32,701 nucleotides of DNA from Acidimicrobiaceae bacterium (GTDB lineage Bacteria; Actinomycetota; Acidimicrobiia; Acidimicrobiales; Bog-793), in NCBI GenBank assembly GCA_025463965.1, contig JAODBN010000104.1:1-32701 (forward strand), in the 5' to 3' direction. Made by a program: the position numbers and the translations under genes. The notes under the pieces were generated by a model. It worked only from the letters and a program-made list of their open reading frames with translations, was not told where the DNA came from and searched no databases. Positions 7,842-27,350 of this stretch are shown piece after piece; the first letter of the stretch is position 1, and each line of letters opens with the position of its first letter.

Positions 7842-9038
7842 ATGCATTCGGTGATCGACACCGTGGCCGCATGGCGAGCCGGCGGACTTCGGGTCGCCTG
7901 GGCCCGCGTCGTGGACACCGAAGGACCGAGCCCTCGCGCGGCGGGCGCCACGATGGCCGTGTCAGAAGACGGCAGGGTCGCCGGTTCTATCTCGGGCGGG
8001 TGCATCGACAGTACCGTCGTCGAGCGAGCGCAGGAACTTCTCGTAGCGGGCGGTTGCCAGCTAATCCGGTTCGGCTACTCGGACGACGAGGCCTTCTCGG
8101 TGGGCCAGACCTGTGGCGGAGTGGTGACGATCTTCATCTCGGGGACGCTGCCCGATGCCTACGACTCGTTTGAGGCGGCGTTCCGGCGATCCACATCGGC
8201 GGTGCTCGTGACGATCATCGACGGTGGTGATGGTCCCGTCTCTCAGGGCGCCTCGATGCTCGTGCACGGGGACGGTCGCTCGGAGGGCACCTTTGGCGAC
8301 GAGTGCCTCGATCGTGCTGTCATCAGTGAGGCGCTGGCAGTGCTCCCGACCTCACGTTCGTCGACTCGTGCCGTCAACTCCAAGATCGACGGACACTCTG
8401 CGGCGCCGGATGCTTTCTTTCACGCTCTCACCGTTCCCCCAAAGATGATCGTCATCGGGGCGGTGGACTTCGCTCTGGCACTCGCCAACCAGGCTCAGCT
8501 TCTCGGCTATGCCGTCACGATCTGCGATCCGAGGGCCACCTTCGCCACCCGGGAACGGTTCCCGACGGCCGGTGATGTCGTCGTTGACTGGCCGGACCGC
8601 TATCTGGCCTCGATCGGGACGACGCTCGGCCAACGCGATGCCGTCTGTGTCCTTTCGCATGAAGCACGCTTCGATGTCCCGGCGATCATGGCGGCGTTGA
8701 GCACAGAAGTGGGCTATGTCGGCGCTCTCGGCTCGAGGCGCACCACCGCAGATCGGCGCTCGCGTCTGCTCGACGCTGGCGCCGAACCGGCTGCCCTTGA
8801 CCGGCTGAACGCCCCGATCGGTCTCAACCTTGGCGCCCGGACGCCGGAGGAGACCGCGCTTTCGATATGCGCCGAGATCGTCGCCCTGCAGAATCGCCGC
8901 ATGGCCCTCCCGCTGCGCGAAGTAGACGGGCCGATTCAGGGAAGTCCTACGCCGTCGGGGACCAGCCCGGGTCGGCTCCGTGCCGACGTCGCCCAGCCGA
9001 CAACCGAGTGCTCTGTTTTCATGCCCTCGCGAACATGA
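7842..9038 (+). CDS. xdhC: XdhC/CoxF-family molybdenum cofactor insertion chaperone
   Basis: GPSPRAAGA, GSISGGCID, TCGG, GYVGALGSRR and APIGLNLGARTPEETALSI motifs. Confidence 0.92.
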   Translation: MHSVIDTVAAWRAGGLRVAWARVVDTEGPSPRAAGATMAVSEDGRVAGSISGGCIDSTVVERAQELLVAGGCQLIRFGYSDDEAFSVGQTCGGVVTIFISGTLPDAYDSFEAAFRRSTSAVLVTIIDGGDGPVSQGASMLVHGDGRSEGTFGDECLDRAVISEALAVLPTSRSSTRAVNSKIDGHSAAPDAFFHALTVPPKMIVIGAVDFALALANQAQLLGYAVTICDPRATFATRERFPTAGDVVVDWPDRYLASIGTTLGQRDAVCVLSHEARFDVPAIMAALSTEVGYVGALGSRRTTADRRSRLLDAGAEPAALDRLNAPIGLNLGARTPEETALSICAEIVALQNRRMALPLREVDGPIQGSPTPSGTSPGRLRADVAQPTTECSVFMPSRT

Positions 9039-9601
9039 CGCCTGCGGCCATTCTCCTCGCCGCGGGCTCCGGAAGCCGGTACGCGGGTCCAAGCCACAAG
9101 CTGCTTGCGCCCATAGGAGGCCGGCCCGTCGTGGTCGCAGCGCTCCATGCCGTCCTGGCGGCAGGGTTCGACGAGGTGATCGTGGTGACCGGCGCGGCGG
9201 ACCTCAGCGCGGTCCTTCCTGACGCCGTCACGGTACTGGTGAACCCTCGGTGGCACCTCGGCCTCGCCAGCTCACTTTCTTTGGGCCTCGGGCACTGCCG
9301 CCGACGCGGGCACCGGGCCGCGGTGATCGGGCTCGGCGACATGCCATCGGTGGGGACAGCGGCTTGGAAAGCGGTGGCTGCATCGGAGGCTCCGATCGCC
9401 GTCGCCAGCTTCGCAGGACAGCGCCGCCCGCCCGTCCGCCTCGCCGAGGAGCAATGGAAGCTTCTGCCCCTGGAAGGTGACGTCGGCGCCCGCTCGCTCT
9501 GGTCGCAACCCGAAGCGGTCGAGATCCCGTGCGAGGGCGACCCCTGGGACGTCGACACGATCGCAGATCTCGCTCGTCTGCGCGCCGGGGCGGCGAGCTA
9601 G
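9035..9601 (+). CDS. mocA: Molybdenum cofactor cytidylyltransferase (MocA-like nucleotidyltransferase)
   Basis: ATGA overlap with the xdhC stop; ILLAAGSGSRY, KLLA, NPRWHLGLASSL, LGDMP, GDVGAR, DVDT motifs. Confidence 0.88.
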   Translation: MTPAAILLAAGSGSRYAGPSHKLLAPIGGRPVVVAALHAVLAAGFDEVIVVTGAADLSAVLPDAVTVLVNPRWHLGLASSLSLGLGHCRRRGHRAAVIGLGDMPSVGTAAWKAVAASEAPIAVASFAGQRRPPVRLAEEQWKLLPLEGDVGARSLWSQPEAVEIPCEGDPWDVDTIADLARLRAGAAS

Positions 9602-9694
9602 TCCATCACCCCGAGGCGATCGGGGGCCCAACGATCTCCCGGGCGCGAAGCGTCATCTAAGCCTCTCGGGCTGCCCGTCGAGCCGAAGGCCCAC

Positions 9695-10978
9695 TCAGGG
9701 CGAGAGCTCGACCTCAGGAGCATCCGTCGTCCGGCGGGCGAGGATCGCGCCGATCCCTGCGGCGGCAAAACAGGCCGCCGCCCCGACCATCAGCGCGACA
9801 CGAGCACTCGCCGCCGCGACGACCCACCCGATCACCGGCCCTCCGATCGGCGTCGTTCCCTGGAACGCCATCGACCACAGCGACATCGCCCGCCCGCGCA
9901 TGGAGAGCTCGGACCCCAGCTGCACCGTCGAGTTGCTGACCGTGATGAACGAGATGCTGAAGACTCCGACCGCTATCAGAGCGACGTACTCGACAGCTAC
10001 CACCGGGGCGACGGCGGCTGCCACGTTCGCGGAACCGAATCCCACTGCGGCGACGAGAAGCGCCCGGGCTCCGACGCGCTTCTTCCCCGCTGTGAGAACG
10101 CCGCCGGCAACTGCACCGAGGCCCATCGTCGCGTACATGAACCCGAAGGTCCGAGAACCGCTGTGGAACGTCTGGGTCGCGACGAGCGGCAACGACACGG
10201 GGTACTCGTAAGTGAACGTACCGATGATGACCATCATCAGGATCGCCATCGAGAGCTCCCTGCTCTTCTTGGCGTAGCGGATGCCAGCACGAAGCTGGCC
10301 CGAACTTCTGGCCAGAAAGGGAACCTTGTTGAGGGTGGCCTTGTCCATGGTCTTGAGTGCCAAGATCACCGCCAAAAAGGTGGCGGCATTGACCACGAAG
10401 CAGATTGCGACGCCAGCTACCGCTATCACGACCCCCGCGATCGCGGGCCCGATGGCCCGCGCCGCATTGATCATGATCGCGGTGAGGCTGACGGCATTCG
10501 GGACATCGTCTGGGCCGACCAGTTCATAGAGGATCGCCTGGCGGGACGGGAGGTCGAACGCCGTGGTGAAGCCGAGCACCGACGCGAGCACGCAGATCTC
10601 CCAATAGCGGGTGACGTGACTGAGCGTGAGGACCGCGAGCACGACTGCCTGGAAGGCCATGATTGCCTGCAGCAAAATCTGCAGGCGCCGACGGTCGACT
10701 CGATCGATGATGACGCCGGCGTAGGCACCGAGGAGAAGCAGTGGCAGCGTCTGGAGCGCAATGACGATTCCGAGCCTCGAGCTCGAGTGCGTCAGGCTTA
10801 GGACTAGCCACGACTGTGCCGCCGCCTGCATCCAGGTTCCCACCAGGGACGTCGACTGCCCGAAGAAGTACCTCCGGAAATTCGGCAGGCGAAGAGAGGA
10901 GAACCTCCCCCGCTCGGCCGGACCAAGGGTGCTCGCAGTGGTGCGGTCGCCCGACTCGATCATCGAGGCGGAGTCCAC
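9695..10978 (-). CDS. MFS transporter (MFS_3 / H+ antiporter-like)
   Basis: About 12 TM; NFRRYFFGQSTSLVGTWMQ, GVIIDRVDRRR, AFDLPSRQA, MRGRAMS motifs. Confidence 0.9.
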   Translation of the reverse strand: MDSASMIESGDRTTASTLGPAERGRFSSLRLPNFRRYFFGQSTSLVGTWMQAAAQSWLVLSLTHSSSRLGIVIALQTLPLLLLGAYAGVIIDRVDRRRLQILLQAIMAFQAVVLAVLTLSHVTRYWEICVLASVLGFTTAFDLPSRQAILYELVGPDDVPNAVSLTAIMINAARAIGPAIAGVVIAVAGVAICFVVNAATFLAVILALKTMDKATLNKVPFLARSSGQLRAGIRYAKKSRELSMAILMMVIIGTFTYEYPVSLPLVATQTFHSGSRTFGFMYATMGLGAVAGGVLTAGKKRVGARALLVAAVGFGSANVAAAVAPVVAVEYVALIAVGVFSISFITVSNSTVQLGSELSMRGRAMSLWSMAFQGTTPIGGPVIGWVVAAASARVALMVGAAACFAAAGIGAILARRTTDAPEVELSP

Positions 10979-11168
10979 AGTGCCGACGGGCGGCCCGACG
11001 GGGCGCGGTCGGTCAGTGGTCCTGGGTACCCGGTCGCCACACTCGTCACCGCCTTGCGTACGGTCGCAACTGCCGAGAGCCCTTGCGGACGCTCCCGTCG
11101 CCCCGCAGCGCGGGGGTGGTCCTAGTTGTCGAACAACGTTCTCCGGCGGACAGCCGTCGTCGTTGGCG

Positions 11169-12071
11169 CTACGAAGCGCTGATGGCGCGCTCGAGATCGT
11201 CCATGTTCAGCGCCCTGCTTCCCAGCGCAAGATCCGTACCACCGCTGACCATCGCCCGGAACACGAGCTTGCGCACTTGGCGCGCGTCAATCGAACGCTC
11301 CGCCAAGCGATCGGCCAGTGATTGCAGCCGGTCTCCTGCCAGGTCCATCGTGGTGTTGGGCAGTTCGCTGAGGCTGTCGCGCAGGATCTCGACGATCGCG
11401 TCGGCCGAAGGGGGGCCCAAGACCTCGAGGATGTCCACTCGGGACAAGACTGCCTCGTCGACAGCCTCGGGGAAGTTCGTCGTGGCGACGAACACCACGT
11501 TCGGGTGAGCACGTGCCACGTGGTCCAGCCCCGTCAGCACTGCTTCGGTCGAGCGATGGACATCCGCCGGGTTGGTGTCGGTCGACGTCCATCGTCTACT
11601 TACTGCAAGCCCCTCGACCTCGTCGATGAGCACCACGACCGGCGCGCCGTCGTGCGCGACGTCGGGGATCGCCCGTTCGAACAGTCGAGCGATTCCCCGC
11701 TGGGACTGGCCCAACAGCTCGCTCGGCAGCGCGTGTGGGTCGATGAGAACGAACCGCACGCCTGAGGCGATACCACGTTGGCGCAGCTCCCTCGCCGCGC
11801 GGTCGGCGAGCCCATGCGCCAACGTGGTCTTGCCGGTTCCGGGCGGCCCACTCAGAAGGATCAGGCCGTGAACCGGGAGTCCAACATCCGACATCTTCCT
11901 GCCAGGACCGAGGCAGAACAGCATCGCATTCAGGAGACGCTCCTTCACCCCGGGCGGGGTGATGATCCGGTCCCATCGTTCGGTCCACTGGTCAGCTGGC
12001 AGATCGACGAGGGCGGAGATGCCCGCCTGACGGTTGGCAGGAGAGAGCTCGAATGCGGACTCGTTGCTCAC
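11169..12071 (-). CDS. Pch2/TRIP13-type AAA+ ATPase (CBASS Cap6-like), 300 aa
   Basis: GTG 12071 overlaps the cupin TGA (GTGA). Motifs: LPVHGLILLSGPPGTGKTTLA, IDPHALPSELLGQSQR, VLIDEVEGLAVSR, NPADVHRSTEAVLTGLD, ATTNFPEAVDEAVLSRVD. These match the Pch2/TRIP13 clade pattern. Confidence 0.85.
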   Translation of the reverse strand: MSNESAFELSPANRQAGISALVDLPADQWTERWDRIITPPGVKERLLNAMLFCLGPGRKMSDVGLPVHGLILLSGPPGTGKTTLAHGLADRAARELRQRGIASGVRFVLIDPHALPSELLGQSQRGIARLFERAIPDVAHDGAPVVVLIDEVEGLAVSRRWTSTDTNPADVHRSTEAVLTGLDHVARAHPNVVFVATTNFPEAVDEAVLSRVDILEVLGPPSADAIVEILRDSLSELPNTTMDLAGDRLQSLADRLAERSIDARQVRKLVFRAMVSGGTDLALGSRALNMDDLERAISAS

Positions 12072-13105
12072 TCGGGACGCCCGGCATCCTTGTCCGGCCA
12101 CTGGATGCCGGACAGATCGGGGGCATCCAGCTTGGGCAGCTCGGACCACAGGTCCATCGGGTCGAGCAGGACGCGCATTAGATCGTAGAGGGCGTCGAAG
12201 TTGTGCACCCGGATCAAGCGAGCGGTGTTGTTCTTGTCGTCGTTGAAGTGTTGGTGCCATGCCCAGTGGTCGACGACCACGAGGTCACCAGGCCCCCACT
12301 CGTAGGACACGTCATCGATGTCGCTGTGGCCATGGCCGCTCACCACGTGGAGCCATGCTTCGCCACCGTGGCGGTGCCGTGATTGCCAGAGTCCGGGGGC
12401 AAGCTCGTGCATGACCGCGGTCAGGCCGGAAGTGCGGAACCCGATCGACTGGTCAACGAGAAATGCGCTTCTCGCCCCCCGCTTGGTGACGCGAGGCGTG
12501 ACCTCGTCCCAGCGCGTGATCAAGCGCCGGTCTTCGGTTGACTGGGTCTCCGCGAGCCGCTCGGACCGGCGGGCATAGCCGTCGGAGCCGGGCACCTTGA
12601 CGGTGCGAGGCGCCAGCGGGAGGTCCTTCACCGGCGTGTCCCCGCCGTCTTCGAGCATCGCCATGCCGAGGGCCTCGTGCATGGGCTGCACGCTCCAGGT
12701 CACAAAGCGGGCGTCGGTGGCCCCTTCGTTGCCATGTCGGTGCCAGGCCCATGCGGGCAGGTGGACGGTGTCCCAGGGACGCCACTGGATGCGAACGCCG
12801 TCGATCTCGGTCCAACCCGATCCTGACGTCACGAACATCATGGCGTCCCACGAGTGCCGGTGAATCGTCGAGGTGTTGCCTGCCGGGATCTCGTGCAAGG
12901 TCGCGTCGAGCACCTTGGTCGGGCTCTCCCCGTCAGCGCCCATGTAGACGCCCCGCCGCATCCGGCGGGCGGGCGAGTCCTCGAGCTTCACGTCGGCTTC
13001 TCGGATGATCGTCCGGCGATACTTCCGCCAGTCCTCGACCACCTGGGCACGTCGCTGCTTCTGCACCTCGTAATGCGTCACCGTCTGCGTCACGGTTTTA
13101 GCCAA
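12068..13105 (-). CDS. Bicupin metalloenzyme (gentisate 1,2-dioxygenase-like fold), 345 aa
   Basis: TTG start at 13105 with GGAGGGG RBS. Two cupin motifs: HRHSWDA...HLPAWAWHRHGN and HRHGGEA...DHWAWHQHFN. Confidence 0.85.
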   Translation of the reverse strand: MAKTVTQTVTHYEVQKQRRAQVVEDWRKYRRTIIREADVKLEDSPARRMRRGVYMGADGESPTKVLDATLHEIPAGNTSTIHRHSWDAMMFVTSGSGWTEIDGVRIQWRPWDTVHLPAWAWHRHGNEGATDARFVTWSVQPMHEALGMAMLEDGGDTPVKDLPLAPRTVKVPGSDGYARRSERLAETQSTEDRRLITRWDEVTPRVTKRGARSAFLVDQSIGFRTSGLTAVMHELAPGLWQSRHRHGGEAWLHVVSGHGHSDIDDVSYEWGPGDLVVVDHWAWHQHFNDDKNNTARLIRVHNFDALYDLMRVLLDPMDLWSELPKLDAPDLSGIQWPDKDAGRPE

Positions 13106-13133: not shown

Positions 13134-13163
13134 AGTATAATGGATACATTCCAGCTCCGGCAA
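13134..13163 (-). promoter_or_regulatory. Promoter TTGCCG-18-TATACT with TGTATCCA box, driving cupin-TRIP13
   Basis: Minus strand reads TTGCCG gagctggaaTGTATCCAt TATACT; the -10 is 28 nt upstream of the TTG start. Confidence 0.6.
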
Positions 13164-13364: not shown

Positions 13365-15728
13365 TCACTCGTCGTCTGTCCGATCCGAGATCAACCGCCA
13401 GACACGCTCAGGCGTAAGCGGAATGCGATCGGGCCACCGGCCGATCGCCCGAGCCACCGCCGTGACGACGGCCGCTGCGATCGGATTCAAAGACCCTTCC
13501 CCCGAGCCCTTGGCACCGTACGGACCGACTCCGTCACGCCGCTCTGCCAGCATCAAGTCGATCCGCGACGGCAGGTCTCGCATGCGTGGAATCCGGTAGT
13601 CGACCAGGTTGGGGTTGACCACCTGGGGTCCGTCGTAGATGAGCTCTTCGAACAGCGAGAGACCGAGGCCCTGGGTAGCCGCGCCGAGATCCTGCGCTTC
13701 TACAGCCTGAGGATTGATGGCGAAACCTACATCCCCGACCGTCGCCAACTGCTCGACGGTGACGGCGCCGGTCTCGGGATCGATCCTGCAGCCGACACCG
13801 ACCATCCCGATCTCCCAGAACGGTGGCATCTGCTTGGTCACACCGGAGCGCCGCACCGTGCCCACTCCGGTCACCTCACCGGCCGAGGCCCCGAACCACT
13901 TCTTGACGATCTCGCCGTAGCGAAGGATCCTGTTGTCTTCGAGGGAGAAGCCACCGGGGCACTGGGTGATCGTGTCGATGTCGACGTTCTCCACTTCCGC
14001 CGCCATCGCCCGCATCTTGGAGAGCGCGTCGGCACAAGCCCTCTGGAGAGCAAGGCCGGCGAGGGTGGTCGTACGACTTGCTCCCGTGGTGCGCTCGTAG
14101 GCGGTCGAACCGGTGTCGGACTGGCGCACCGCGACCTGTCGCAGCTCGATGCCGAACTCCTCAGCAGCGATCTGTCCGAGCAATGAGCGGCTTCCCTGGC
14201 CCATCTCGGTCGATCCGCTGAGGACGATCACCGAGCCGTCCGTCTCTACTCGCACGGCTGCGGTCGACACGGGAAAGGCGCCGGCGTCGGAGGCAGAGCA
14301 AGCGAACCCCACCCCGTACCACTTCGTATTCGACGGCTCACCCATCTTCAAGGCCGAGAGGAGCATCTCGAGATCGGCGGGAAGATCCGCGTCGATCCCC
14401 CGCTTGCCTTGCAGGATCTCCTCGCCGGGCTGCACCAGATTCCGGCGGCGGATCTCTGCGGAGTCGATGCCGAGCTCCTCGGCGGCACGCTCGAGGTTGG
14501 TCTCGCCAGCAAGCACACCCTGAGGGGCACCGAAGCCCCGGTAGGACGACGCCGGAGACGTGTTGGTGTAGATCGAGCGGCCACGGACGCGCAGGTTGGG
14601 GACACGGTACGGGCCGAAGCAGCGATTGACCGACTTCGCGATCACGAGCGGGCTGTTGTCCGCATATGCGCCGGAGTCCATGACGATGTCGAACTCGCGA
14701 GCAATGAACCGGCCGTCGGCATCGAGGGCGCTACGTACCTTGACCACCGCGGAGTCGACACGCGTCGTGTAGATGGACTCTTCGACGTCCAAGACGAGCT
14801 TCACCGGCCTGCCGACGTGCCACGAGGCGACCGCAGCGAGCGGCTCGACCTTCGTGTACGACTTCGACCCGTAGCCGCCACCAAGGTACGGTGCGCGGAC
14901 CGTGACCGCCGAAAGCGGGAGGCCGAACACCCTCGCGAGGTCGTCACGGACCATGAACGGGTGCTGTGCGGTGCTGTCGACCTCCAGCCGACCGTTGGCG
15001 TAGGACGCGATCGCGTTGTAGGGCTCCATGGCGTACGCGTACAGCATGGGAAAGTGCATCGAGCTCTCGACGACGACCGCGGCCGACTCCCATGCAGCGT
15101 CGACGTCGCCCCACTCGAGCGTCACCTCGTGCGCGACGTTGTCGACCCGGGGCCCACCCTCTGGCGAGCCCGCGCCCTCGCCCGGGCTGAGGTTGTCCAC
15201 GTCCAGAAGCGGCAGGTCTACTTCGTGGACCAGCACCGCCCCAGCGGCGAGGGCGTCCTCCGCCGTGATCACCGCGGGCAGGTCCTCGTACTCGACCTGA
15301 ACGAGCTCGAGCGCGTCAGCTGCAGCCGCCTCGGTTTCTGCGACGACGAGTGCGACTGGCTCGCCGTAGTAGCGGACCTTGCCGTTCGCGAGGATCTCGT
15401 GATCGGCAACGATGTGCCCGAATCGCGAGCAGAGCCCCGTGAGGGTGTCGCAAGTCAGCACGGCGACGACTCCCGGCGCCGAGCGAGCGGCATCAGTGTC
15501 GATGGCGAGGATTCGGGCGTGTGCCCTGGTCGATCGGACGATCTTCGCGGAGGCCGATCCGCTGCGCCGCAGGTCTACGCAGTAGACCGCCGCGCCGGTC
15601 ACCTTCTCGAGGAGGTCGGGCCGGAGCACCGAGTGTCCGACATACGCGTGGCCGGACTCTTGGCGAGCCCCCTGGCCGTGCTCGCCCGAGCCGTCGAGGC
15701 TCGAGGAAATCTGGCCCACGTCAGCCAT
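13365..15728 (-). CDS. Xanthine dehydrogenase-family molybdopterin-binding (large) subunit
   Basis: ATG 15728 overlaps the small-subunit stop. KVTGAAVY, GGGYGSK, SYRGFGAPQ, EMGQG, GASRTT, GAKGSGEG (catalytic Glu). Confidence 0.93.
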   Translation of the reverse strand: MADVGQISSSLDGSGEHGQGARQESGHAYVGHSVLRPDLLEKVTGAAVYCVDLRRSGSASAKIVRSTRAHARILAIDTDAARSAPGVVAVLTCDTLTGLCSRFGHIVADHEILANGKVRYYGEPVALVVAETEAAAADALELVQVEYEDLPAVITAEDALAAGAVLVHEVDLPLLDVDNLSPGEGAGSPEGGPRVDNVAHEVTLEWGDVDAAWESAAVVVESSMHFPMLYAYAMEPYNAIASYANGRLEVDSTAQHPFMVRDDLARVFGLPLSAVTVRAPYLGGGYGSKSYTKVEPLAAVASWHVGRPVKLVLDVEESIYTTRVDSAVVKVRSALDADGRFIAREFDIVMDSGAYADNSPLVIAKSVNRCFGPYRVPNLRVRGRSIYTNTSPASSYRGFGAPQGVLAGETNLERAAEELGIDSAEIRRRNLVQPGEEILQGKRGIDADLPADLEMLLSALKMGEPSNTKWYGVGFACSASDAGAFPVSTAAVRVETDGSVIVLSGSTEMGQGSRSLLGQIAAEEFGIELRQVAVRQSDTGSTAYERTTGASRTTTLAGLALQRACADALSKMRAMAAEVENVDIDTITQCPGGFSLEDNRILRYGEIVKKWFGASAGEVTGVGTVRRSGVTKQMPPFWEIGMVGVGCRIDPETGAVTVEQLATVGDVGFAINPQAVEAQDLGAATQGLGLSLFEELIYDGPQVVNPNLVDYRIPRMRDLPSRIDLMLAERRDGVGPYGAKGSGEGSLNPIAAAVVTAVARAIGRWPDRIPLTPERVWRLISDRTDDE

Positions 15729-16221
15729 TCTCGCCTGCCTTGATCCCCTGGAGCACCCGCGCCGCCTGCTCGACCGCGGCAACGATCGGCGCGTAGCCGG
15801 TGCATCGACACAGATTGCCGTCCAGGTGCTCCAGGATCTCCTCCCGACTCGGCTGAGGAGTGCTGTCGAGGAGCGCCTTGGCCATCATGATGAAGCCGGG
15901 CGTGCAAAAGCCACACTGGAGAGCCATCTTTTCGACGAACGCGCGCTGCAGGGGATGGAGCTCGCCGTCGCGGGCCAGCCCCTCGATCGTGGTTACCGCC
16001 TTCCCGTCCACGTCCACCGCTAGGTACGTGCACGCGCTGACGGGCTCACCGGCGACGAGCACCGTGCAGGCGCCACAGATCTGCACGTCACAGCTCACCT
16101 TCGTGCCGGTCAGTGCGAGGTCCTCACGCAGCCAGTGCGCCAGGGTCGTCCGGACGTCGATCGCCTGGGTGATCGAGTTGCCGTTGACCGTGCAAGCGAT
16201 CTCCAAAGAGGTGACGCTCAC
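15721..16221 (-). CDS. [2Fe-2S] small subunit (CoxS/XdhA-like)
   Basis: GTG 16221 overlaps the upstream TGA. GTKVSCDVQICGACTV, QCGFCTPG, NLCRCTGY. Confidence 0.95.
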   Translation of the reverse strand: MSVTSLEIACTVNGNSITQAIDVRTTLAHWLREDLALTGTKVSCDVQICGACTVLVAGEPVSACTYLAVDVDGKAVTTIEGLARDGELHPLQRAFVEKMALQCGFCTPGFIMMAKALLDSTPQPSREEILEHLDGNLCRCTGYAPIVAAVEQAARVLQGIKAGENG

Positions 16222-19910: not shown

Positions 19911-20848
19911 GCATCTCCCAGCATCTTGAGGGTCTCGGTGTTCATGTCATTGCTCTGAATCCGGATGCCGCCGCCCTGGAGGTACCGGTCGAACCACTCG
20001 ACGATCCTCGGAGTGACGGAGTTCCAGTAGCGGTCGTACGCCGCGTAGTGGGACGTGTGGCGCTGGATCACGAGCTCGCGCGGCCCGAGCGCAGCCGCGT
20101 AGAGCGCCTCCGCGTGGTCCGTGGGAGTGGTCGCGTCGTTCTCCACCCCGATGATGAGCAGAGGGGTCCGCAGGCGACGGGCGGCATCGATGGGCCGGTA
20201 GTCGAGAATTTCGTCCGCGGCGCTCAGCGGGACGGCTGAAGGAATGCGGTCGTCGACGTCGGCCTTCATGTTCGTCGACCGCCGCTCCTGGGTCGGAACC
20301 ATGATCTCTTCGCGCGGGTGCACCAGGCGTCCCTTGCCCGTAACGACCCGTTCACGACGGTCGACGTCGAGAGCGCGGAGGAACGCGAGCCAATCGTCCT
20401 CAGAGCGCATCCGATGGAGCCAGTCGCGGCCATCGGCCACCGGCAGCTGGCTGACCACGGCGCGAATGCGAGGGTCCGCCGCAGCGAGAAGCACCGCATT
20501 GCCGCCGCCGGTCCCGCCAGAGCCGAAAGCCCCAATGGCGTCCGCGTCGACGTCCTCCCTGGTGGTCAGGTAGGAGACCGCATTCCGCAGGTCTTGCAGC
20601 TGGATTGCCGGCGAGAGGATCCGCTCACCCTCGGAGTCGCCGAAGCCTCGGTAGTCGAACACGAGCACTGCGAAGCCGGCGTCGGTCAATGCCTCGTGGT
20701 AGCGCACATAGAGCTTCGCGTCCTTCAGGCCGAGCCAACCCGGTCCTTGAACAACCGTCCGGAAGGGGCCGCTTCCCTCGTCGGGAGTCCGCCAAAGGGC
20801 GGAGACCTGACTGCCCTCGCTGTAGAACGACACTGCAGAAGATCGCAC
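19907..20848 (-). CDS. Alpha/beta hydrolase (S15/CocE-like) with atypical nucleophile elbow
   Basis: GFAVLVFDYRGFGDSEG, DLRNAVSYL, PLLIIGVENDATTP (Asp), TSHYAAY (His). Elbow reads GAFGSGGTGGG. GGAG RBS. Confidence 0.85.
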   Translation of the reverse strand: MRSSAVSFYSEGSQVSALWRTPDEGSGPFRTVVQGPGWLGLKDAKLYVRYHEALTDAGFAVLVFDYRGFGDSEGERILSPAIQLQDLRNAVSYLTTREDVDADAIGAFGSGGTGGGNAVLLAAADPRIRAVVSQLPVADGRDWLHRMRSEDDWLAFLRALDVDRRERVVTGKGRLVHPREEIMVPTQERRSTNMKADVDDRIPSAVPLSAADEILDYRPIDAARRLRTPLLIIGVENDATTPTDHAEALYAAALGPRELVIQRHTSHYAAYDRYWNSVTPRIVEWFDRYLQGGGIRIQSNDMNTETLKMLGDA

Positions 20849-20933: not shown

Positions 20934-20962
20934 ATCATGTTGCCTGTATACGATCTTGTCAA
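20934..20962 (-). promoter_or_regulatory. Promoter TTGACA-17-CATGAT with GTATACA box, driving the 7-gene hydrolase-to-molybdoenzyme operon
   Basis: Minus strand reads TTGACA agatcGTATACAggcaa CATGAT. Confidence 0.72.
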
Positions 20963-21129: not shown

Positions 21130-22116
21130 TCAGCGCGTGAGGCCGGGCAGTACCTCTCTCCCGAACACCTCGATCCACTCTTGCTGGTTGCGCCCAACAT
21201 TGTGCAAGTAGACGCGGTCGATGCCGAGGTCCAAGAACTTCTGGATCTCCTTTTGGTGAAGATCGGGAGACGAGCTGATCAGCATTCGGCCCTCGAAGTC
21301 CTCGGGCCGCACGAGCTTGGCCATCTGCTCGAAGTCAAAGGGCGACCGAATGTCCTGCTTGGGGAACTTCATCCCACCGTTCGGCCACTCGGTCATCGCA
21401 TTCATGAGCGCCTCTTCGTCGGTCGGTGCCCACGAGAGGTGCAGCTGAAGGATCTTGGGCAGCGTTGCTGCGTCTCGCCCTGCCTCCTTGGCACCCTCGT
21501 CGAACTTGGCGAGGAGGCCCGCCACCTTCTCCGGGGCTGCGCCCGGGGTGATGATGCCATCGACTGACTTGCCGCAGCGCTTTGCTGTGATGGGACCGGC
21601 GGTCGCCACGTAGATCGGGGGCGGCGGCGCCGGGAGGGTCCACAGCCGGGTCGTCTCAAGGATGAAGGTGTCGCCCGAGTGCTTTACGTCCTTGCCCGTG
21701 AACAGCTTTTGAATGATCTCGATCGCTTCCCACATGCGACTGAGCCGCGCAGGAGCCTCGGGCCAGTACCCACCGACGATGTGCTCGTTGAGCGCCTCGC
21801 CCGAGCCCAGGCCGAGCCAGCTGCGACCTGGATACATGGCCTCGAGCGTCGCCGCCGCCTGAGCCACGATCGCCGGGTGGAAGCGGAACGACGGACAGGT
21901 CACACCCGGGCCCATGTCCCCGGTCGTCTGCTCACCAAGCGCGGTGAGCACGTTCCAGACGAACGCCGCGTGCCCCTGCTGAGGGACCCATGGCTGGAAG
22001 TGGTCAGCAGCCATCACTCCTTCGAAGCCGGCCTGTTCGGCCTGCGCCGACAATCGGACCACTTCGGTGGGGTGGAACTGCTCCAGCATCGCTGCGTAGC
22101 CGATATGTGGCTTCAT
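21130..22116 (-). CDS. F420-dependent LLM oxidoreductase (TIGR03557 / G6PDH-F420-like)
   Basis: IGYAAMLEQF, AADHFQPW, GVTCPSFRFHPAIVAQAAATL, LGLGSGEALNE motifs. Confidence 0.88.
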   Translation of the reverse strand: MKPHIGYAAMLEQFHPTEVVRLSAQAEQAGFEGVMAADHFQPWVPQQGHAAFVWNVLTALGEQTTGDMGPGVTCPSFRFHPAIVAQAAATLEAMYPGRSWLGLGSGEALNEHIVGGYWPEAPARLSRMWEAIEIIQKLFTGKDVKHSGDTFILETTRLWTLPAPPPPIYVATAGPITAKRCGKSVDGIITPGAAPEKVAGLLAKFDEGAKEAGRDAATLPKILQLHLSWAPTDEEALMNAMTEWPNGGMKFPKQDIRSPFDFEQMAKLVRPEDFEGRMLISSSPDLHQKEIQKFLDLGIDRVYLHNVGRNQQEWIEVFGREVLPGLTR

Positions 22117-22452: not shown

Positions 22453-23160
22453 ATGCCAAGTACAGACGTGGAAGTAGACCTGCGAGAGCAATTGGCGACC
22501 TGCACCCGGATCCTCGTCTTCAAGAACATCCTGGACTTCAGCGGCCATCTCAGTGCTCGCATCCCCGGAACGGACCACATTCTCATTCAGCCCCGCGATG
22601 CGAGCCGGGCGGCGCTTGTTCCCGAGGAAATCCTCGTGGTGAACCTCGACGGCGAGGTCATCGATGGCAGCGGGCCACCCCCGGCGGAGACGGTTATTCA
22701 CACCGGCGTGTACGGCGCCCGGCCCGACGTCAACTTCGTCTGCCATGGGCATCCAACACTGTCCACCACCTTCTCGATGGTGGACCGACCGCTCGTCGCC
22801 GTGCGGCACTTCGCCTATCGGGCCCCCAAGGGCCTGCCGGTCCACCCCGACCCCACGCACATCCGCTCCCGGGAGCAAGGTCAAGCGGTCGCGAAGACGC
22901 TTGGTACCGGCGGGGCGTGCCTGCTGCGCTCGCACGGAACCGTTGTGGTCGCCCCGAACATTCAGGAGCTCCTCATGGACTGCCTCGACCTCGAGGAGAA
23001 CGCTCGCACCCTGCTGTACGCCACGCAGCTCGGCGAGGTGCTGCCGCTCGATGACGAGGAAGTACGTCTCATCGGTGAGAGCTACGGTCGCGCGGGCCAC
23101 CGCCCCAACAAGCTCTGGGAGCACTTCGTGCACGTCGGGCGAGCGGCCGGGATCCTTTAG
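22453..23160 (+). CDS. Class II aldolase/adducin-family metalloenzyme (possible decarboxylase)
   Basis: GHLSAR, ETVIH, VCHGHP and LLRSHG metal-binding His motifs. The upstream part of the tracked ORF is antisense to the LLM gene. Confidence 0.85.
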   Translation: MPSTDVEVDLREQLATCTRILVFKNILDFSGHLSARIPGTDHILIQPRDASRAALVPEEILVVNLDGEVIDGSGPPPAETVIHTGVYGARPDVNFVCHGHPTLSTTFSMVDRPLVAVRHFAYRAPKGLPVHPDPTHIRSREQGQAVAKTLGTGGACLLRSHGTVVVAPNIQELLMDCLDLEENARTLLYATQLGEVLPLDDEEVRLIGESYGRAGHRPNKLWEHFVHVGRAAGIL

Positions 23161-23234
23161 GAAGCCGGCAGGCCGCCATTTTCCCGAGCCCGCCCAGGTC
23201 GGGTGCAGTTAACACAGCAGACCCAATAGGGCTC

Positions 23235-23263
23235 TTGACTGTTCGGTATACGTACTACAAGAT
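23235..23263 (+). promoter_or_regulatory. Promoter TTGACT-17-CAAGAT with GTATAC box, driving the second ABC operon
   Basis: TTGACT gttcgGTATACgtacta CAAGAT; same layout as the 20934-20962 promoter. Confidence 0.62.
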
Positions 23264-23498
23264 ACTTCGAAAGGCGCTACTACCTGGGGGGGGAATGCGC
23301 GGCTCAGGCTGATTGGTCGCGCTCGCTCCCCAGTAAAGCGACGCGTCAAAACAAAGCCAAGCTGCCGGGCTCCTTGAGCGCTCCGGTCAATAAGCAATCG
23401 CAATCCCGAGCGTGAAAAGAGGGCGGCGCAGTGGATCTCACGATCGCAGGCTTGTCCCTCGACGGTGGCCGGGCCCGGAGCGAGAGATGGAGCCAACG

Positions 23499-24365
23499 AT
23501 GATCGCCGTTGACGACCTGGGAAACACCACCAACCCGCCAGAAGCCCCTGTCGTGGACCGTAAGGTCGCTCGCCCGTCGAGGCGAGCATGGAGGCGAGGC
23601 GCGAGCTTGGCGGCCGGACCGCTGTCCGTGGTCGTGTTCCTCGGTATCTGGCAGATCGCAGGAGGACGGATCAACCCGATCCTCTTGTCGCAGCCGACCG
23701 CGGTCGCTCAAGCGTTCGGCCACTTGGCCAGAACCGGAATCTTGTGGCCCGCGTTCGCGCGAGCCATGGAAGACCTTCTCGTTGGATACCTGTCGGCAGT
23801 CGTCATCGGCATTGGCACCGGCGTGCTCATGGGCCGGCACCGTGCAGTCGAGAGAGTGCTGAGCCCCTATGTCACCTTCTTCCAGGCCACACCACTGATC
23901 GCCCTTACCCCGCTGGTGGTCATCTGGTTCGGTCTCGGCTTCATGTCCGAGATCGCCATCACGTTCCTCCTGGCAGTGTGGACGATCATCATCAACACCT
24001 GTGAGGGCGTGAAGTCCACCCCCCCACTCCTGCTCGACATGGCCCGGATTTATCACGCCTCCGAGCGCAAGGTGGTCCGAAAGATCGCCATACCCAATGC
24101 GGTCCCCTACATCTTCGCCGGACTGAAGATCGCGGTCGCAAAGGCATTGATCGGCATGATCATCGCTGGCATGGACATCACCTTGAAAGGCCTCGGCGGC
24201 CTTGTCACCACTTACGGCAACGAATTTCAGACCGCTTCCCTGCTCGCCGCGGTGATCACCTCCTCGGTGGTGGGCGTCATTTTGACCCTTCTCATCAACG
24301 TCCTACGACGGGTGATCGCTCCGTGGAGCATCAATGTCGAGGTGAAGACGAAGGGCCGCTGGTAG
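23499..24365 (+). CDS. ABC transporter permease, NitT/TauT; paralog of 5497-6369
   Basis: GGAG RBS before ATG 23499. Shares RINPILLS, FFQATPLIAL, PNAVPYIFAGL and GLGGLVTxYGNxFQTA with the left copy. Confidence 0.93.
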   Translation: MIAVDDLGNTTNPPEAPVVDRKVARPSRRAWRRGASLAAGPLSVVVFLGIWQIAGGRINPILLSQPTAVAQAFGHLARTGILWPAFARAMEDLLVGYLSAVVIGIGTGVLMGRHRAVERVLSPYVTFFQATPLIALTPLVVIWFGLGFMSEIAITFLLAVWTIIINTCEGVKSTPPLLLDMARIYHASERKVVRKIAIPNAVPYIFAGLKIAVAKALIGMIIAGMDITLKGLGGLVTTYGNEFQTASLLAAVITSSVVGVILTLLINVLRRVIAPWSINVEVKTKGRW

Positions 24366-24459
24366 GCGAGCTCACCGGCGCCTGTCACACACAGCGGGCT
24401 GCGATCCGAGTGCGACCGCGGGATCCGAGATTCCAACAGGGAAGAAAGAACTTGGCTGA

Positions 24460-25290
24460 ATGTCGAATGCAATGAGCACCGACCGTGGACCCTTGCTCGA
24501 GGTCAGTCACGTCACAAAGCGGTTCCCACGCCCAGAAGGGCCTGGACTGCTCACGGTTCTCGAGGACATCAACCTCTCGCTCGCACCCGGAGAGTTCGTC
24601 AGCCTGATCGGGCCCTCTGGGTGCGGGAAGACGACGCTGATCCGCTTGATGAGCGGGCTCATGGGATGCGACGACGGCTGGATCGCCCTACGTAACGAGC
24701 GGTTCGAGTCCGTTCCGAAGGGAGTGGGCTTCGTGTTCCAAGAGCCCGCCCTTCTGCCCTGGTGCACGGTCTCCGAGAACATCGCGTTCGCCTTGACCGC
24801 ATCCGCCGACGCCGGCAAGCGACGGCCGGGGGTCGACGACCTCGTCAACAAGCAGCTCGAGCTGACGAGCTTGACCCCTTTCGCCAGTTACTACCCAACG
24901 CAGATCTCCGGTGGAATGCAACAGCGGGTCGGCCTGGCACGGGCTCTCGTCGGGAGCCCGGATGTGCTGTTCATGGACGAGCCTCTCTCGGCTCTCGACG
25001 CCTTCACCAGGACCGCCCTACAAGCGGACCTCGGTCGCATCATCGAGGCCGCGGCGACAACGACCGTGCTGGTCACTCACGACATCGACGAGGCGATCTT
25101 CATGTCGGACCGAGTGGTCGTCATGAAAGCGAACCCCGGTGAGATCGCCCAGATCGTGGACGTGCCGCTTGCCCGACCCCGCAGCCACGAGGCGCTGCTC
25201 GACGATGCGGACTACGTCGCCCTGCGCACCGAGCTCATGCGGATCCTGCTCAAGGTGTCGCCACACATCTTCAACAACTCAGGCAACTGA
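24460..25290 (+). CDS. ABC transporter ATP-binding protein, NitT/TauT
   Basis: GPSGCGKT, ISGGMQQR, LFMDEPLSALD, VTHDIDEA. Start is 24460 or 24472. Confidence 0.95.
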   Translation: MSNAMSTDRGPLLEVSHVTKRFPRPEGPGLLTVLEDINLSLAPGEFVSLIGPSGCGKTTLIRLMSGLMGCDDGWIALRNERFESVPKGVGFVFQEPALLPWCTVSENIAFALTASADAGKRRPGVDDLVNKQLELTSLTPFASYYPTQISGGMQQRVGLARALVGSPDVLFMDEPLSALDAFTRTALQADLGRIIEAAATTTVLVTHDIDEAIFMSDRVVVMKANPGEIAQIVDVPLARPRSHEALLDDADYVALRTELMRILLKVSPHIFNNSGN

Positions 25291-25394
25291 GTCTGAAAGC
25301 CTCCGGCGAAGGCCGGGGTAAGCGGCATCTCGTTCCCCCCGCTACGGGTCGGCGCGGATGCTCACCAGTGTCCATCCCAGACCGAAAGGAAGAC

Positions 25395-26486
25395 ATGGAG
25401 CGAATGACAGGACAATCAGGTCCACAGCTCTCAACCCGGCGGCGCCACGGCCGCTTCGGGACCCCGGCATTGGCGATGAGCGCCTTGGCCATCGCTGGAA
25501 CGGTCACCGTGGGGCTCGCTACGGGATCGGGCGCATCGCAGGCACACGCGACGAGCGCCGCGACGACCTCGTTCCCTCCCAACCTCAAGGGCAAGAGCAT
25601 CGTCTTTGCGGACGGTTCGCCGCCCCAGCAGAGCGATACCCAGCTCTACCTGATGACGAAGATCCTCAAGTCTTGGGGGGCAGACGCCCGGATCGTCAAC
25701 GAGACCGGTGACCCAGCTGCAGTGACCGTCGTGCTCTCGGGAGAGGCCAACGCGGCGTACATCAGCACCGGTGACGTGATCAACTCTCACCTGGTCACGT
25801 TCGGCCCCGCACAGCCCCGGCTCGACTACCAGTTCGTCACGACGTCCAGCATCCACAACATGTCGCAGTTGGCCGGAAAGACCTTCGGATGGTCCAACCC
25901 GCATGGGGTCGAGGCCGAGATGTACGGAGTGCTGCTGCGCAAGTTCCACGTGAACCCGAACAGCGTGACGACGGCGCTCGCAGGCTCCTCGAGCGTGCGG
26001 GAAGCGGCCCTGCTGGTGGGCAAGATCCAGGCCACCTTCGTGTCGACCGCGCAGTGGGACACCCTGAAGGCGCACGGGGGGTTCAGGGACATGGAGAACA
26101 TGGCCCAGGTCGCTCCCCAGGTCGCCGACTCCCTCATGGCCGCCTCCCCCGGGTGGCTCGCGAAGAACCACTCAAGCGCGGTGGCGATCGACGAGGCATG
26201 GCTCGAGGCAGCCAAGGAATTCAACACGCAGAAGTCGAAATGGATCGCCGGAGCTGACGTGTACGCGGCCGGATCCGCCACGAAGGCGGACGCGACTGCC
26301 CAGTACGACGTGTTCAAGCTGAACAACACCTTCCCCGCCACGTCGGACGCGTTCTCACCGGCCCACGCCCGGTTCAACGAGGTCGTCGCGCAGTCGGTCG
26401 GGGCGCTCGTAAGTGAGCCACCGCTTTCGAAGTGGTTCATCGACGGGGATTGGACCGACGCACTCAAGGCACTGAACATCAAGTAG
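25395..26486 (+). CDS. ABC substrate-binding protein, SsuA/THI5-like
   Basis: AAGGAAG RBS; signal peptide ending AHA; FPPNLKGKSI resembles VPPKLKGTDM of the left SBP; LAGKTFG and REAALLVGKIQAT motifs. Confidence 0.85.
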   Translation: MERMTGQSGPQLSTRRRHGRFGTPALAMSALAIAGTVTVGLATGSGASQAHATSAATTSFPPNLKGKSIVFADGSPPQQSDTQLYLMTKILKSWGADARIVNETGDPAAVTVVLSGEANAAYISTGDVINSHLVTFGPAQPRLDYQFVTTSSIHNMSQLAGKTFGWSNPHGVEAEMYGVLLRKFHVNPNSVTTALAGSSSVREAALLVGKIQATFVSTAQWDTLKAHGGFRDMENMAQVAPQVADSLMAASPGWLAKNHSSAVAIDEAWLEAAKEFNTQKSKWIAGADVYAAGSATKADATAQYDVFKLNNTFPATSDAFSPAHARFNEVVAQSVGALVSEPPLSKWFIDGDWTDALKALNIK

Positions 26487-26498
26487 GCAGCCGAGATC

Positions 26499-26543
26499 GC
26501 CGGCCGGGATACGAGACGCCGAGTCTCGTCGTGCCCGGCCGGC
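26499..26543 (+). terminator. Long GC-rich stem-loop after the SBP gene (terminator or mRNA stabiliser)
   Basis: GCCGGCCGGG..ACGAGAC-gccga-GTCTCGT..CCCGGCCGGC inverted repeat, 12 nt after the stop. Confidence 0.6.
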
Positions 26544-26570
26544 GGCTCCGGTCTACTTCCGACTAGGAGG

Positions 26571-27350
26571 GTGCGGCCCGTGGCCGATCGAGTAGCAGTG
26601 ATCACCGGGGCGTCGAGCGGAATCGGCGCCGCGACCGGACAGCTCTTGGCGGAGTCCGGCTATGAGGTGGTGCTCGGCGCCCGACGTGTGGAGCGGTTGG
26701 AGGCCCTCGCCGCTCAGATCGGACCGCGGGCGCGCTGCTATGAGCTCGACGTGTCCGATCCGGCGTCGGTGGAGCGCTTTTGCCTCAAGGTCCCGGCTTG
26801 TCAGCTATTGGTCAACAACGCCGGTGGCGCTCTCGGAGACGAGCCGATCTCGAGCGCGGATCTGGCATCGTGGCGGCAGATGTACGACACCAACGTGCTC
26901 GGGATCGTGCACATGACCAAGCAGCTTCTCCCGAAGCTTCTCGCCTCGGCTGACGGGCACATCGTGACGATCGGCTCAGTCGCAGGTTTCGACCCCTACC
27001 CCAACAGCGGTGGCTACGTAGCAGCGAAGCACGCGGCAAGAGCGGTCATGGACGTGCTCCGCCTCGAGCTCCTCGGCCAGCCGATCCGGGTCTCGGAGAT
27101 CGACCCGGGGATGGTGCACACCGAGTTCTCGTTGGTCCGCTTCGCCGGCGACGAGGAGCGCGCGACTGCCATGTACGCAGGAATGACACCCCTCAGCCCG
27201 CTCGACGTCGCAGAGTGTGTCGCCTTCGTCGCAAACCGCCCGAGCCACGTCGACATCGATCGGCTCGTGGTGCGTCCGCGCGACCAGGCTCGACCGACCC
27301 TCGTCCATCGGCGCCCGGCCGATGCCGATGTGAGTCTGGCCGATCGATAA
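26571..27350 (+). CDS. SDR-family NAD(P)-dependent oxidoreductase (YdfG-like)
   Basis: TGASSGIG, GARR, NNAG, GS, YVAAK (YxxxK), IDPGMVHTEFSLVRF. Start is 26571 or 26580. Confidence 0.92.
   Translation: MRPVADRVAVITGASSGIGAATGQLLAESGYEVVLGARRVERLEALAAQIGPRARCYELDVSDPASVERFCLKVPACQLLVNNAGGALGDEPISSADLASWRQMYDTNVLGIVHMTKQLLPKLLASADGHIVTIGSVAGFDPYPNSGGYVAAKHAARAVMDVLRLELLGQPIRVSEIDPGMVHTEFSLVRFAGDEERATAMYAGMTPLSPLDVAECVAFVANRPSHVDIDRLVVRPRDQARPTLVHRRPADADVSLADR

Follow-up and report, generated by a model that had tools for sequence, protein, structure and literature searches.

A widespread N-heterocycle catabolic gene cluster with a likely F420-reductive core in an Acidimicrobiaceae genome

Organization of the locus

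We analyzed a 32,701-nucleotide stretch of DNA (hereafter the window; positions 1 to 32,701 of contig JAODBN010000104.1) from a 3.54-Mb, 77% complete Acidimicrobiaceae assembly, which carries a gene cluster for the catabolism of an N-heterocyclic compound. At its centre lies a seven-gene operon on the minus strand, running from 20848 down to 13365, which encodes an alpha/beta hydrolase-fold protein (ABH), a cyclic amidohydrolase (AMH), a protein of the luciferase-like family (LLM1) and the CoxG, M, S and L components of a molybdenum (Mo) hydroxylase; its junctions consist of four overlaps of 1-8 nucleotides (nt) and two gaps of 43 and 12 nt. Two further gene pairs overlap, namely XdhC (7842-9038) with MocA (9035-9601), and a bicupin gene (13105-12068) with that of an AAA ATPase (12071-11169). 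All genes named in an earlier reading of this DNA (the original prediction), including the seven-gene operon, are present where that reading had placed them (Table 1). As detailed below, the cluster is real, widespread and regulated; it forms an N-heterocycle catabolic system whose core is likely F420-reductive. Its conserved heart is likely an F420H2-dependent reductive step, which the original prediction overlooked, and not an oxidation.

The ABH-AMH-LLM1 trio is the conserved unit

Scanning genomes with AMH yielded 169 confirmed loci; unless a metagenome set is named, the locus counts given here refer to the best 80 of them, many from Agromyces, Microbacterium and their kin. Neighbouring genes were clustered from the calls of a codon-trained gene caller, and 50 of the 80 genomes were searched in full, the omitted 30 being mostly near-redundant Agromyces or Microbacterium genomes or short contigs. 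The nearest named relative is an Acidimicrobiaceae metagenome-assembled genome (MAG), whose AMH is 87% identical. The gene set and the seven-gene operon are real, and ABH, AMH and LLM1 keep the same order and strand in 74/80 loci, which goes beyond chance. Identity across the relatives compared amounts to 62-78% for ABH, 67-87% for AMH and 75-88% for LLM1, and the trio occurs in the named isolates Agromyces soli, Microbacterium lacus, Mycolicibacterium agri and Amycolatopsis rhabdoformis. The LLM1 protein family is large: of 8,000 proteins scored, 2,653 reached E 1e-60 or better. Database names of LLM1, L and AMH relatives are generic, and a full-text literature search, which left most subscription journals outside its coverage, found no published description of this gene set.

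The genes around the trio are far more variable. Within 10 kb, L is found in 19 of the 80 loci, the gene of an aldolase-fold protein in 13, that of a second luciferase-like protein (LLM2) in 23, and the AAA gene in 5, and both the bicupin and the SDR are absent. Whole-genome searches (n=50) detected orthologues of L in 25 genomes and of the bicupin in 5, the aldolase-fold gene in 12, LigB in 15 and a monocupin in 17. L and LigB are mutually exclusive, with no genome having both, and L is also present in 15/17 monocupin genomes. Other lineages carry LigAB, a CoA-transferase, an amidohydrolase-2 and an MDR oxidoreductase in place of the Mo-hydroxylase and cupin module, and minimal Amycolatopsis operons read aldII-ABC-GntR-ABH-AMH-LLM1-FGD, without an oxidase. 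Mapped onto the AMH tree, the labels XDH (for xanthine dehydrogenase-type enzymes) and LigAB need only four changes, three of them forced by strong branches, indicating that the swap reflects few events. The conserved unit is the ABH-AMH-LLM1 trio, around which the Mo-hydroxylase, cupin, aldolase-fold and LigAB genes form interchangeable modules. The SDR, with no orthologue in any of the 80 loci, is ruled out as a core step. The original prediction had described the pathway as self-contained, a view at odds with the absence of SDR orthologues, with the limited occurrence of L (25/50 genomes) and the bicupin (5/50), and with the synthesis of F420 elsewhere, cofE lying on another contig of the host (C267).

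For the bicupin, we took the best 80 of 180 loci from a metagenome scan. Its neighbours there include the AAA gene (59/80), LLM1-like genes (39), an M20 peptidase (34), CoxG (16), AMH (11) and ABH (8), which ties the bicupin to the same system. One metagenome locus (L091) unites CoxG-M-S-L, GntR, ABC, bicupin, AAA and LLM2 genes with the trio. The host genome itself carries a second, paralogous cluster fragment on contig C176 (L191), comprising L (65% identical), S, an FGD-like luciferase-like protein, an ABC permease and ATPase, and a GntR gene.

A shared operator motif defines the predicted regulon

Three copies of the motif TTGAC-N5-8-GTATAC exist in the 3.54-Mb assembly, all of them inside the window, where they precede the first ABC importer, the seven-gene operon and the second ABC importer. 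Variant sites precede the bicupin (GGATAC) and LLM2 (GTATCC at 22209). Having been defined on the window, the motif was checked against relatives and the metagenome set. It is found upstream of ABH in 20/63 relatives, as compared with 5.4 +/- 2.1 in shuffled sequences (maximum 12), and in 20/117 cluster promoters of the metagenome set (shuffles 7.4 +/- 2.6) versus 12/111 other gaps (6.6 +/- 2.5). We infer that the GntR regulators bind this GTATAC-type operator. The shared motif suggests that the regulon runs from about 3412 to 28191 and includes the first ABC importer and both GntR/FCD regulators. The span of 7842-27350 given in the original prediction proved too narrow, as 3412-6369, 6862-7581 and 27490-28191 appear to belong to the regulon as well. 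The permease of the first importer has an 80% identical orthologue in the cluster of the closest relative, where binding protein and ATPase genes follow (locus L189). The original prediction of an N-heterocycle catabolic cluster is supported, with genes that are co-conserved (the trio in 74/80 loci) and have the operator motif in common. A search of sequencing runs listed no RNA data set containing the cluster, and two RNA sequencing runs gave only short unrelated pieces.

The core enzymes

AMH resembles dihydroorotases (the type I enzyme of B. anthracis and the archaeal PRK02382 group) in its HxHxR, MPN and DHAPH motifs and two further histidines, and it carries a lysine at the carbamylation position, as in hydantoinases. 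Its metal site and clamp residues are complete (H63, H65, R67, N97, K147, H189, H248, D320 and H324). R67, N97 and H324 take the places of the HxHxR, MPN and DHAPH motifs in an alignment with the B. anthracis enzyme, in which we take the clamp Asn and His to have roles as well, and this R/N/H clamp is invariant within the AMH family. The corresponding Arg of dihydroorotase (Arg63) is reported to be essential for substrate binding (PMC12524618). Allantoinase and L-hydantoinase, the generic relatives returned by the structure search, lack the clamp Arg when aligned with AMH. Unlike dihydroorotases, however, AMH carries the sequence ALSYWVP in place of the K-x-N-P-P-L-R loop (77/80 AMH sequences), and it scores below all family cut-offs (284 versus 452 bits for the best dihydroorotase family; 209 versus 393 bits for TIGR02033). 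In a quick tree, the AMHs of the trio group in a single clade (support 99) that is separate from the enzymes with the loop, and they stand in a catabolic context. The kept clamp and the replaced loop suggest a substrate whose carboxylate side likely resembles dihydroorotate, whereas its opposite side differs.

The identity of a biosynthetic PyrC was rejected for AMH. Several further forms of the enzyme were observed among relatives. A Gaiella MAG (L032:6201-11416) carries an AMH orthologue within a 1048-amino acid (aa) frame that has a hydantoinase B-like N-terminus and follows a hydantoinase A-like gene; UbiD-like and XOR genes (labels from sequence starts) lie nearby, and ABH and LLM1 are missing from the locus. 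Mycolicibacterium agri (L190) has a 39% identical AMH paralogue together with an M28 peptidase, a luciferase-like protein and GntR, and Pigmentiphaga and archaea likewise have sister subfamilies of AMH in which the loop is altered.

LLM1 is, as we infer from its relatives and gene context, a hydride-transferring reductase using F420H2. Its best PDB matches are the F420 enzymes Mer and FGD, and a Pfam domain search of the window found no flavin reductase gene. cofE is present in 48/50 trio genomes (the two misses are MAGs), as compared with 85/151 Microbacteriaceae, and F420 supply genes (FGD, cofC/D/E, fbiC, or a putative F420-0 importer or FO-type ABC system) lie within 10 kb in 44/80 loci. 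Microbacterium lacus harbors a second cofE copy inside its cluster, and FGD lies directly downstream of LLM1 in the minimal Amycolatopsis operons. LLM2 exceeds the TIGR03557 cut-off (287 versus 210.4 bits) and stays under that of the FGD equivalog (220 versus 420 bits). Since cofE and nearby supply genes accompany the trio, LLM1 resembles Mer and FGD, and a flavin reductase is missing, use of F420 by the cluster appears likely. LLM1 itself occurs in only 2/151 genomes of the Microbacteriaceae sample, a number at which a family-wide comparison of LLM1 with cofE has no power.

Among catabolic enzymes of this fold, PMC8498797 lists the F420H2-dependent picrate reductase (Fht/NpdI) and treats the roles of most others as an open question. 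Like LLM1 as predicted, picrate reductase has this fold and transfers hydride to an electron-poor ring in catabolism, but its substrate is a xenobiotic nitroaromatic. The TIGR03842 pyrimidine operon likewise combines a luciferase-like reductase, a cyclic amidohydrolase and a second hydrolase, but its reductase is only 23% identical to LLM1, AMH is dihydroorotase-derived, and the third enzyme here has a nucleophile-less alpha/beta fold. Such an operon, with a TIGR03842 protein, a dihydropyrimidinase and a nitrilase-family protein, adjoins the cluster in Agromyces soli (L173:3443-9819) and Cryobacterium (L178:5336-15478), which suggests F420 catabolic islands.

ABH is predicted to adopt an alpha/beta hydrolase fold (pLDDT 88.5), in which Asp238 and His267 are invariant. 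Its nucleophile elbow reads G-[S/T]-G-G-T-G-G-G-N, with a Gly at the alignment position of the Ser nucleophile in 7qjm. Relatives as distant as 53% identity retain the Gly-Gly-Thr elbow, in one case as Gly-Ala-Thr, and Thr113 may serve as a displaced nucleophile. A structure search returned only generic relatives (7qjm, YcjY, PA2218 and DcsB), and a sequence-atlas search nothing specific.

The accessory modules

L, M and S show the expected Pfam domains, and the L motifs TAQHP, GGGYGSK, YRGFG, TEMGQG and KGSGEG, together with the catalytic Glu, identify a Mo hydroxylase of the xanthine oxidoreductase (XOR) family. In xanthine dehydrogenase, Glu802/Glu232 and Arg880/881 have roles in the substrate pocket. 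L has Ser in the Glu232/Glu802 column and Lys in the Arg881 column, and its scores fall below the cut-offs of XdhA (415 versus 780 bits) and XdhB (276 versus 849 bits); the identity of a purine XDH is ruled out accordingly. The best PDB match of the L Mo domain is nicotinate dehydrogenase (E 8e-38; PDB 3hrd), which also lacks the purine-binding Glu in our alignment. HpdA of Ensifer HP1, a four-component 3-hydroxypyridine dehydrogenase, likewise has an SRPBCC/CoxG protein as a subunit of its own in addition to L, M and S (bioRxiv 10.1101/2020.01.08.898148). HpdA feeds an oxidative maleamate route there, whereas the hydroxylase here is optional and tied to the predicted reductive trio.

The bicupin is distantly similar to gentisate and 5-aminosalicylate 1,2-dioxygenases, and its fold and HxH motifs are kept despite low family scores (65 versus 442 and 75 versus 650 bits, NCBIfam cut-offs). 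Where metagenome loci extend to a gene downstream of the bicupin (73 loci), that gene is the AAA gene in 56. The best PDB match of this ATPase is Pch2 (E 1.6e-30), and PADLOC assigns it to TRIP13 (E 4.7e-81). PADLOC found no match for CBASS or HORMA partners among five other window proteins tested, HORMA and CD-NTase neighbours were not seen, and the neighbours of the AAA gene in relatives are cupin, MFS and M20 genes. A CBASS/HORMA TRIP13 system is ruled out on these observations, the TRIP13-like ATPase being the only component found. Similar pairings recur elsewhere: the TRIP13-like ATPase accompanies a different monocupin in L044, L045 and L048, an EutA-like ATPase accompanies another cupin in L124, L129, L142, L154 and L052 (EutA being found in 12/80 metagenome loci), and in L193 a NicX-like protein precedes a CbbQ/NorQ-type AAA gene. 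Several metalloenzymes of the system thus seem to come with their own ATPase. The bicupin also has a conserved Thr-rich N-terminal tail, which could be the handle of its ATPase.

The aldolase-fold protein has Mlr6791 as its best PDB match (E 4.7e-22, the next reaching 1.7e-15), which we take to be the pyridine-dicarboxylate decarboxylase of vitamin B6 catabolism. The NicX-like lead for one relative's gene comes from 35% of one sequence-atlas cluster.

Table 1. Features of the cluster and their positions in the window.
Feature	Position	Strand	Evidence or occurrence
First NMT1/SsuA-type ABC importer	3412-6369	-	Permease 6369-5497, binding protein 5350-4268, ATPase 4227-3412; Pfam
Candidate promoter-operator TTGACA-N6-GTATAC, upstream of first ABC importer	6485-6502	-	
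GntR/FCD regulator 1	6862-7581	-	Pfam; GntR at >=30% identity in 41/80 loci
XdhC and MocA-like Mo-cofactor (MCD) maturation genes	7842-9601	+	XdhC within 10 kb in only 2/80 loci
MFS_3 transporter, probably for export	9695-10978	-	Pfam
TRIP13/Pch2-like AAA+ ATPase, coupled to bicupin gene	11169-12071	-	
Bicupin, predicted ring-cleavage dioxygenase	12068-13105	-	Two HxH metal motifs
Degenerate operator GGATAC, upstream of bicupin	13142-13147		
Four-gene Mo hydroxylase	13365-17479	-	CoxG 17479-17021, M (FAD subunit) 17021-16218, S (Fe-S subunit) 16221-15721, L (Mo subunit) 15728-13365
LLM1, core, predicted ring reductase using F420H2	17492-18487	-	In 75/80 loci
AMH, core, binuclear cyclic amidohydrolase by fold (dihydroorotase-like)	18531-19910	-	
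ABH, core, alpha/beta hydrolase fold	19907-20848	-	In 77/80 loci
Predicted promoter TTGACA-17-CATGAT of seven-gene operon, GTATAC operator inside spacer	20934-20962	-	
LLM2, F420-dependent dehydrogenase of G6PD family, predicted F420H2 supply	21130-22116	-	Orthologue in 23/80 loci
Protein of class II aldolase fold, predicted decarboxylase of heteroaromatic or beta-keto acids	22453-23160	+	13/80 loci
Candidate promoter-operator TTGACT-N5-GTATAC, upstream of second ABC importer	23235-23251	+	
Second NMT1-type ABC importer (permease, ATPase, binding protein)	23487-26486	+	Binding-protein orthologue in 9/80 loci
YdfG-like SDR, accessory, not conserved	26571-27350	+	0/80 loci at >=45%; 68% paralogue elsewhere in genome
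GntR/FCD regulator 2	27490-28191	+	Pfam; 53% identical to regulator 1

Elsewhere in the window, positions 1646-3343 encode a 565-aa predicted membrane protein with a low-complexity, repeat-like C-terminus, which has no Pfam, NCBIfam or PADLOC match and is unrelated to the cluster. An Rfam search of the window gave no match.

Kynurenine-family compounds as candidate substrates

Accessory genes of the relatives offer clues to the substrate. An aspartate ammonia-lyase lies in the cluster in 6/80 loci and in L198, the organisms being Mycolicibacterium, Actinotalea, Blastococcus and a Micrococcales MAG. A gene for 3-hydroxyanthranilate dioxygenase is present in 20/50 trio genomes, including 13 of the 15 with LigB. 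Among the named trio Microbacteriaceae it occurs in 10/12 (one as a partial gene); in the Microbacteriaceae sample it occurs in 2/151, and as one of these two is the trio genome on which the sample was centred, the figure for other family members is 1/150. In five genomes, the dioxygenase lies within about 16 kb of the cluster. Five tested genomes contain tryptophan dioxygenase and gave no match to a kynurenine monooxygenase query, and their dioxygenase operons keep kynureninase (one fetched contig ends before that position). From these gene sets, the trio organisms seem equipped for kynurenine-family compounds from outside.

Beside the LysR gene of the 3-hydroxyanthranilate/kynureninase operon, we also observed a 532-541 aa protein without Pfam or NCBIfam match, which is 83-90% conserved in Agromyces, Microbacterium and Leifsonia (L171:12287-13885, L199, L200, L201, L206, L207 and L210). 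It may supply 3-hydroxykynurenine from an outside compound.

The classical kynurenate pathway, described in the biochemistry of the 1960s, proceeds via 7,8-dihydroxykynurenate and 4,6-dihydroxypicolinates, and 4,6-dihydroxypicolinate is 3-deaza-orotate and contains the aspartate skeleton. A pair of a thiamine pyrophosphate (TPP) enzyme and an aldehyde dehydrogenase, found in 3/80 loci, and the CoA-transferase of relatives, whose best match is succinate-glutarate CoA-transferase at a score below the cut-off, match steps of this pathway. More broadly, the accessory genes of relatives agree with its extradiol cleavage, its reduction step, decarboxylation by a TPP enzyme, oxidation of an aldehyde and the release of aspartate, whereas its Rieske kynurenate hydroxylase is not present here and F420 does not figure in its description. 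Extradiol cleavage next to the nitrogen would install the 6-oxo group otherwise supplied by the Mo hydroxylase, and two such alternative routes to the 6-oxo group would account for the mutual exclusion of LigAB and L. A literature search on orotate catabolism, isonicotinate/citrazinate and bacterial kynurenate degradation found nothing usable.

On this basis, we propose the following scheme. The NMT1-type ABC system would import the acid, the bicupin would cleave a carbocyclic ring, and decarboxylation beside a ring oxo group would fall to the aldolase-fold enzyme. CoxG-M-S-L would add an oxo group next to the nitrogen, giving a compound of the 4,6-dihydroxypicolinate type (3-deaza-orotate), whose C2=C3 bond LLM1 would reduce with F420H2 regenerated by LLM2 or FGD. 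With its dihydroorotase clamp gripping the carboxylate, AMH would then open the ring by hydrolysis, and the nucleophile-less ABH would release aspartate and an acyl fragment by general-base hydrolysis. An F420-linked reductive ring opening as the core is quite probable in itself; given such a core, a kynurenine-family substrate is slightly favored. For both together, that is, an F420-linked core acting on a pyridine- or quinoline-2-carboxylate of the tryptophan/kynurenine family, we estimate a probability of roughly 0.4, and the most likely substrate would be a picolinate derived from kynurenate or xanthurenate.

Several observations weigh against this proposal. LLM1 stays below the cut-off of the F420 family TIGR03619 (155.2 versus 166.9 bits), and neither cofH and cofC nor kynureninase, 3-hydroxyanthranilate dioxygenase and kynurenine monooxygenase had a match in the 77% complete host assembly. 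Genomes with the window's own Mo-hydroxylase variant carry the dioxygenase in only 2/25 cases, and the co-occurrence of dioxygenase and trio rests on few independent events in two or three lineages, because the labels need only four changes on the AMH tree; Fisher p values for these counts are overstated, as kin are not independent of each other. The R/N/H clamp is common in the wider clade too (87/127 rows), from which AMH may have inherited it, and the structure searches found no ligand-bound relative. Finally, action of AMH on 3-deaza-orotate would require a C-C cleavage or a differently placed lactam, and we know of no precedent for either.

Alternative substrates and mechanisms

The intact dihydroorotase clamp of AMH also fits a reductive route for orotate or a substituted pyrimidine-carboxylate, in which LLM1 would be an orotate reductase using F420H2, AMH a catabolic dihydroorotase and ABH the enzyme removing the carbamoyl group, with aspartase leading on to fumarate. 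Aspartase in seven loci, the NMT1-type importers and a layout parallel to the TIGR03842 operon agree with this route, which we nevertheless consider unlikely: the loop characteristic of dihydroorotases is replaced, AMH scores far below their cut-off, and ring-cleavage dioxygenases, the XDH/LigAB swap and the 3-hydroxyanthranilate link would all go unexplained. If instead the Mo hydroxylase is given most weight, with its L Mo domain closest to nicotinate dehydrogenase and a CoxG/SRPBCC subunit that is essential in HpdA as far as described (bioRxiv 10.1101/2020.01.08.898148), a single pyridine acid such as isonicotinate, quinolinate or cinchomeronate comes into view. Its hydroxylation to a dihydroxy acid, for example citrazinate, would be followed by reduction to a glutarimide-type ring and hydrolysis to a tricarboxylate. 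The closeness of the aldolase-fold protein to Mlr6791 and the NicX-like, isochorismatase and Tct genes of relatives are in line with such a substrate, and Mycobacterium INA1 reportedly has an isonicotinate route. However, L was not found in 25/50 trio genomes, a citrazinate route yields tricarballylate and not aspartate, and LigAB has no place in it, which makes a pyridine acid improbable.

The original prediction had favored a fused pyrimidinedione (lumazine, alloxazine or deazaflavin) or purine analogue, whose uracil ring AMH, a cyclic amidohydrolase by fold, would open. Two characterized clusters allow comparison by gene content, as far as the available parts of their accounts go. The lum cluster of Nocardioides simplex (PMC12746152) encodes a self-sufficient P450 (LumU), the 80-kDa LumH, a two-subunit TPP decarboxylase (LumKL), the single-chain 140-kDa LumJ and a Rieske dioxygenase (LumABCD), and like the cluster in the window it serves the breakdown of a heterocycle in an actinobacterium by way of amidohydrolases, a decarboxylase, an XOR-family oxidase and cleavage of a ring. 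Lumazine cluster I of Cupriavidus LA-1 (PMC12391406) is similar in its three-subunit Mo dehydrogenase, amidohydrolase, decarboxylase and NTPase helper for a metalloenzyme. The gene sets nonetheless differ: LumU, LumKL, LumABCD and a single-chain LumJ are absent from the window, as are the amidohydrolase-2 isomerase pair, UbiD/UbiX and pterin deaminase of the lumazine cluster, and neither route includes a reductive step as described. P450, TPP enzyme and isochorismatase genes do occur in some relatives, as in the lumichrome cluster, of which its authors expect variants, and relatives have genes for FO-type ABC and PnuC transporters close to the cluster; the FO transporter is, however, explained by F420 supply. 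With these signature enzymes missing, Ser in place of the purine-binding Glu in L and a carboxylate clamp in AMH, pteridines, alloxazines and purines are the weaker option, and we regard them as improbable. A benzo-fused lactam acid (2-quinolone-4-carboxylate, its 8-hydroxy form or oxindole acetate) appears more doubtful still. Its reduction and lactam hydrolysis would give an aminophenyl acid, to be shortened via CoA to (hydroxy)anthranilate; dihydro-2-quinolone-4-carboxylate would share the carbonyl-CH2-CH(COO-) geometry of dihydroorotate, and the Tyr-Trp loop of AMH could seat the benzo ring. Such a route explains the pair of CoA-transferase and amidohydrolase-2, with a presumable likeness to CouO, as well as the 3-hydroxyanthranilate operon in 5/5 tested tryptophan-dioxygenase genomes without a kynurenine monooxygenase match. 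Yet it produces no aspartate, acyl-CoA dehydrogenase and hydratase were not seen in the clusters, and the kynureninase kept in those operons points to 3-hydroxykynurenine as the entry. The F420 link itself could be questioned if LLM1 were an FMN-dependent monooxygenase cleaving the ring oxidatively, like RutA, with the F420 genes serving LLM2 only; its sub-threshold F420 family score and the fact that most Actinomycetota make F420 anyway speak for this. Mer and FGD as nearest structural relatives, the lack of a flavin reductase in the cluster, FGD directly after LLM1 in minimal operons and the cofE copy inside the Microbacterium lacus cluster make it very improbable indeed.

Implications

The F420-linked core gives one predicted F420-dependent luciferase-like family a testable role in the catabolism of natural compounds, and in Amycolatopsis it is condensed into a small operon suited to reconstitution. 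In its broadest form, the proposal is that the trio represents a widespread F420H2-driven dearomatization and ring-opening module for natural N-heterocyclic acids and that the cluster holds the genes of the lower kynurenate/xanthurenate pathway; we consider this tentative and rather unlikely in full. If true, it would entail a dihydroorotase-derived hydrolase acting on a deaza ring, a nucleophile-less hydrolase of the alpha/beta fold, and a TRIP13/Pch2-type ATPase that matures or reactivates a cupin dioxygenase. A stereoselective F420-dependent ring reductase combined with a lactam hydrolase would, if confirmed, be useful in biocatalysis, and a true kynurenine link would provide the genes for a long-described pathway.

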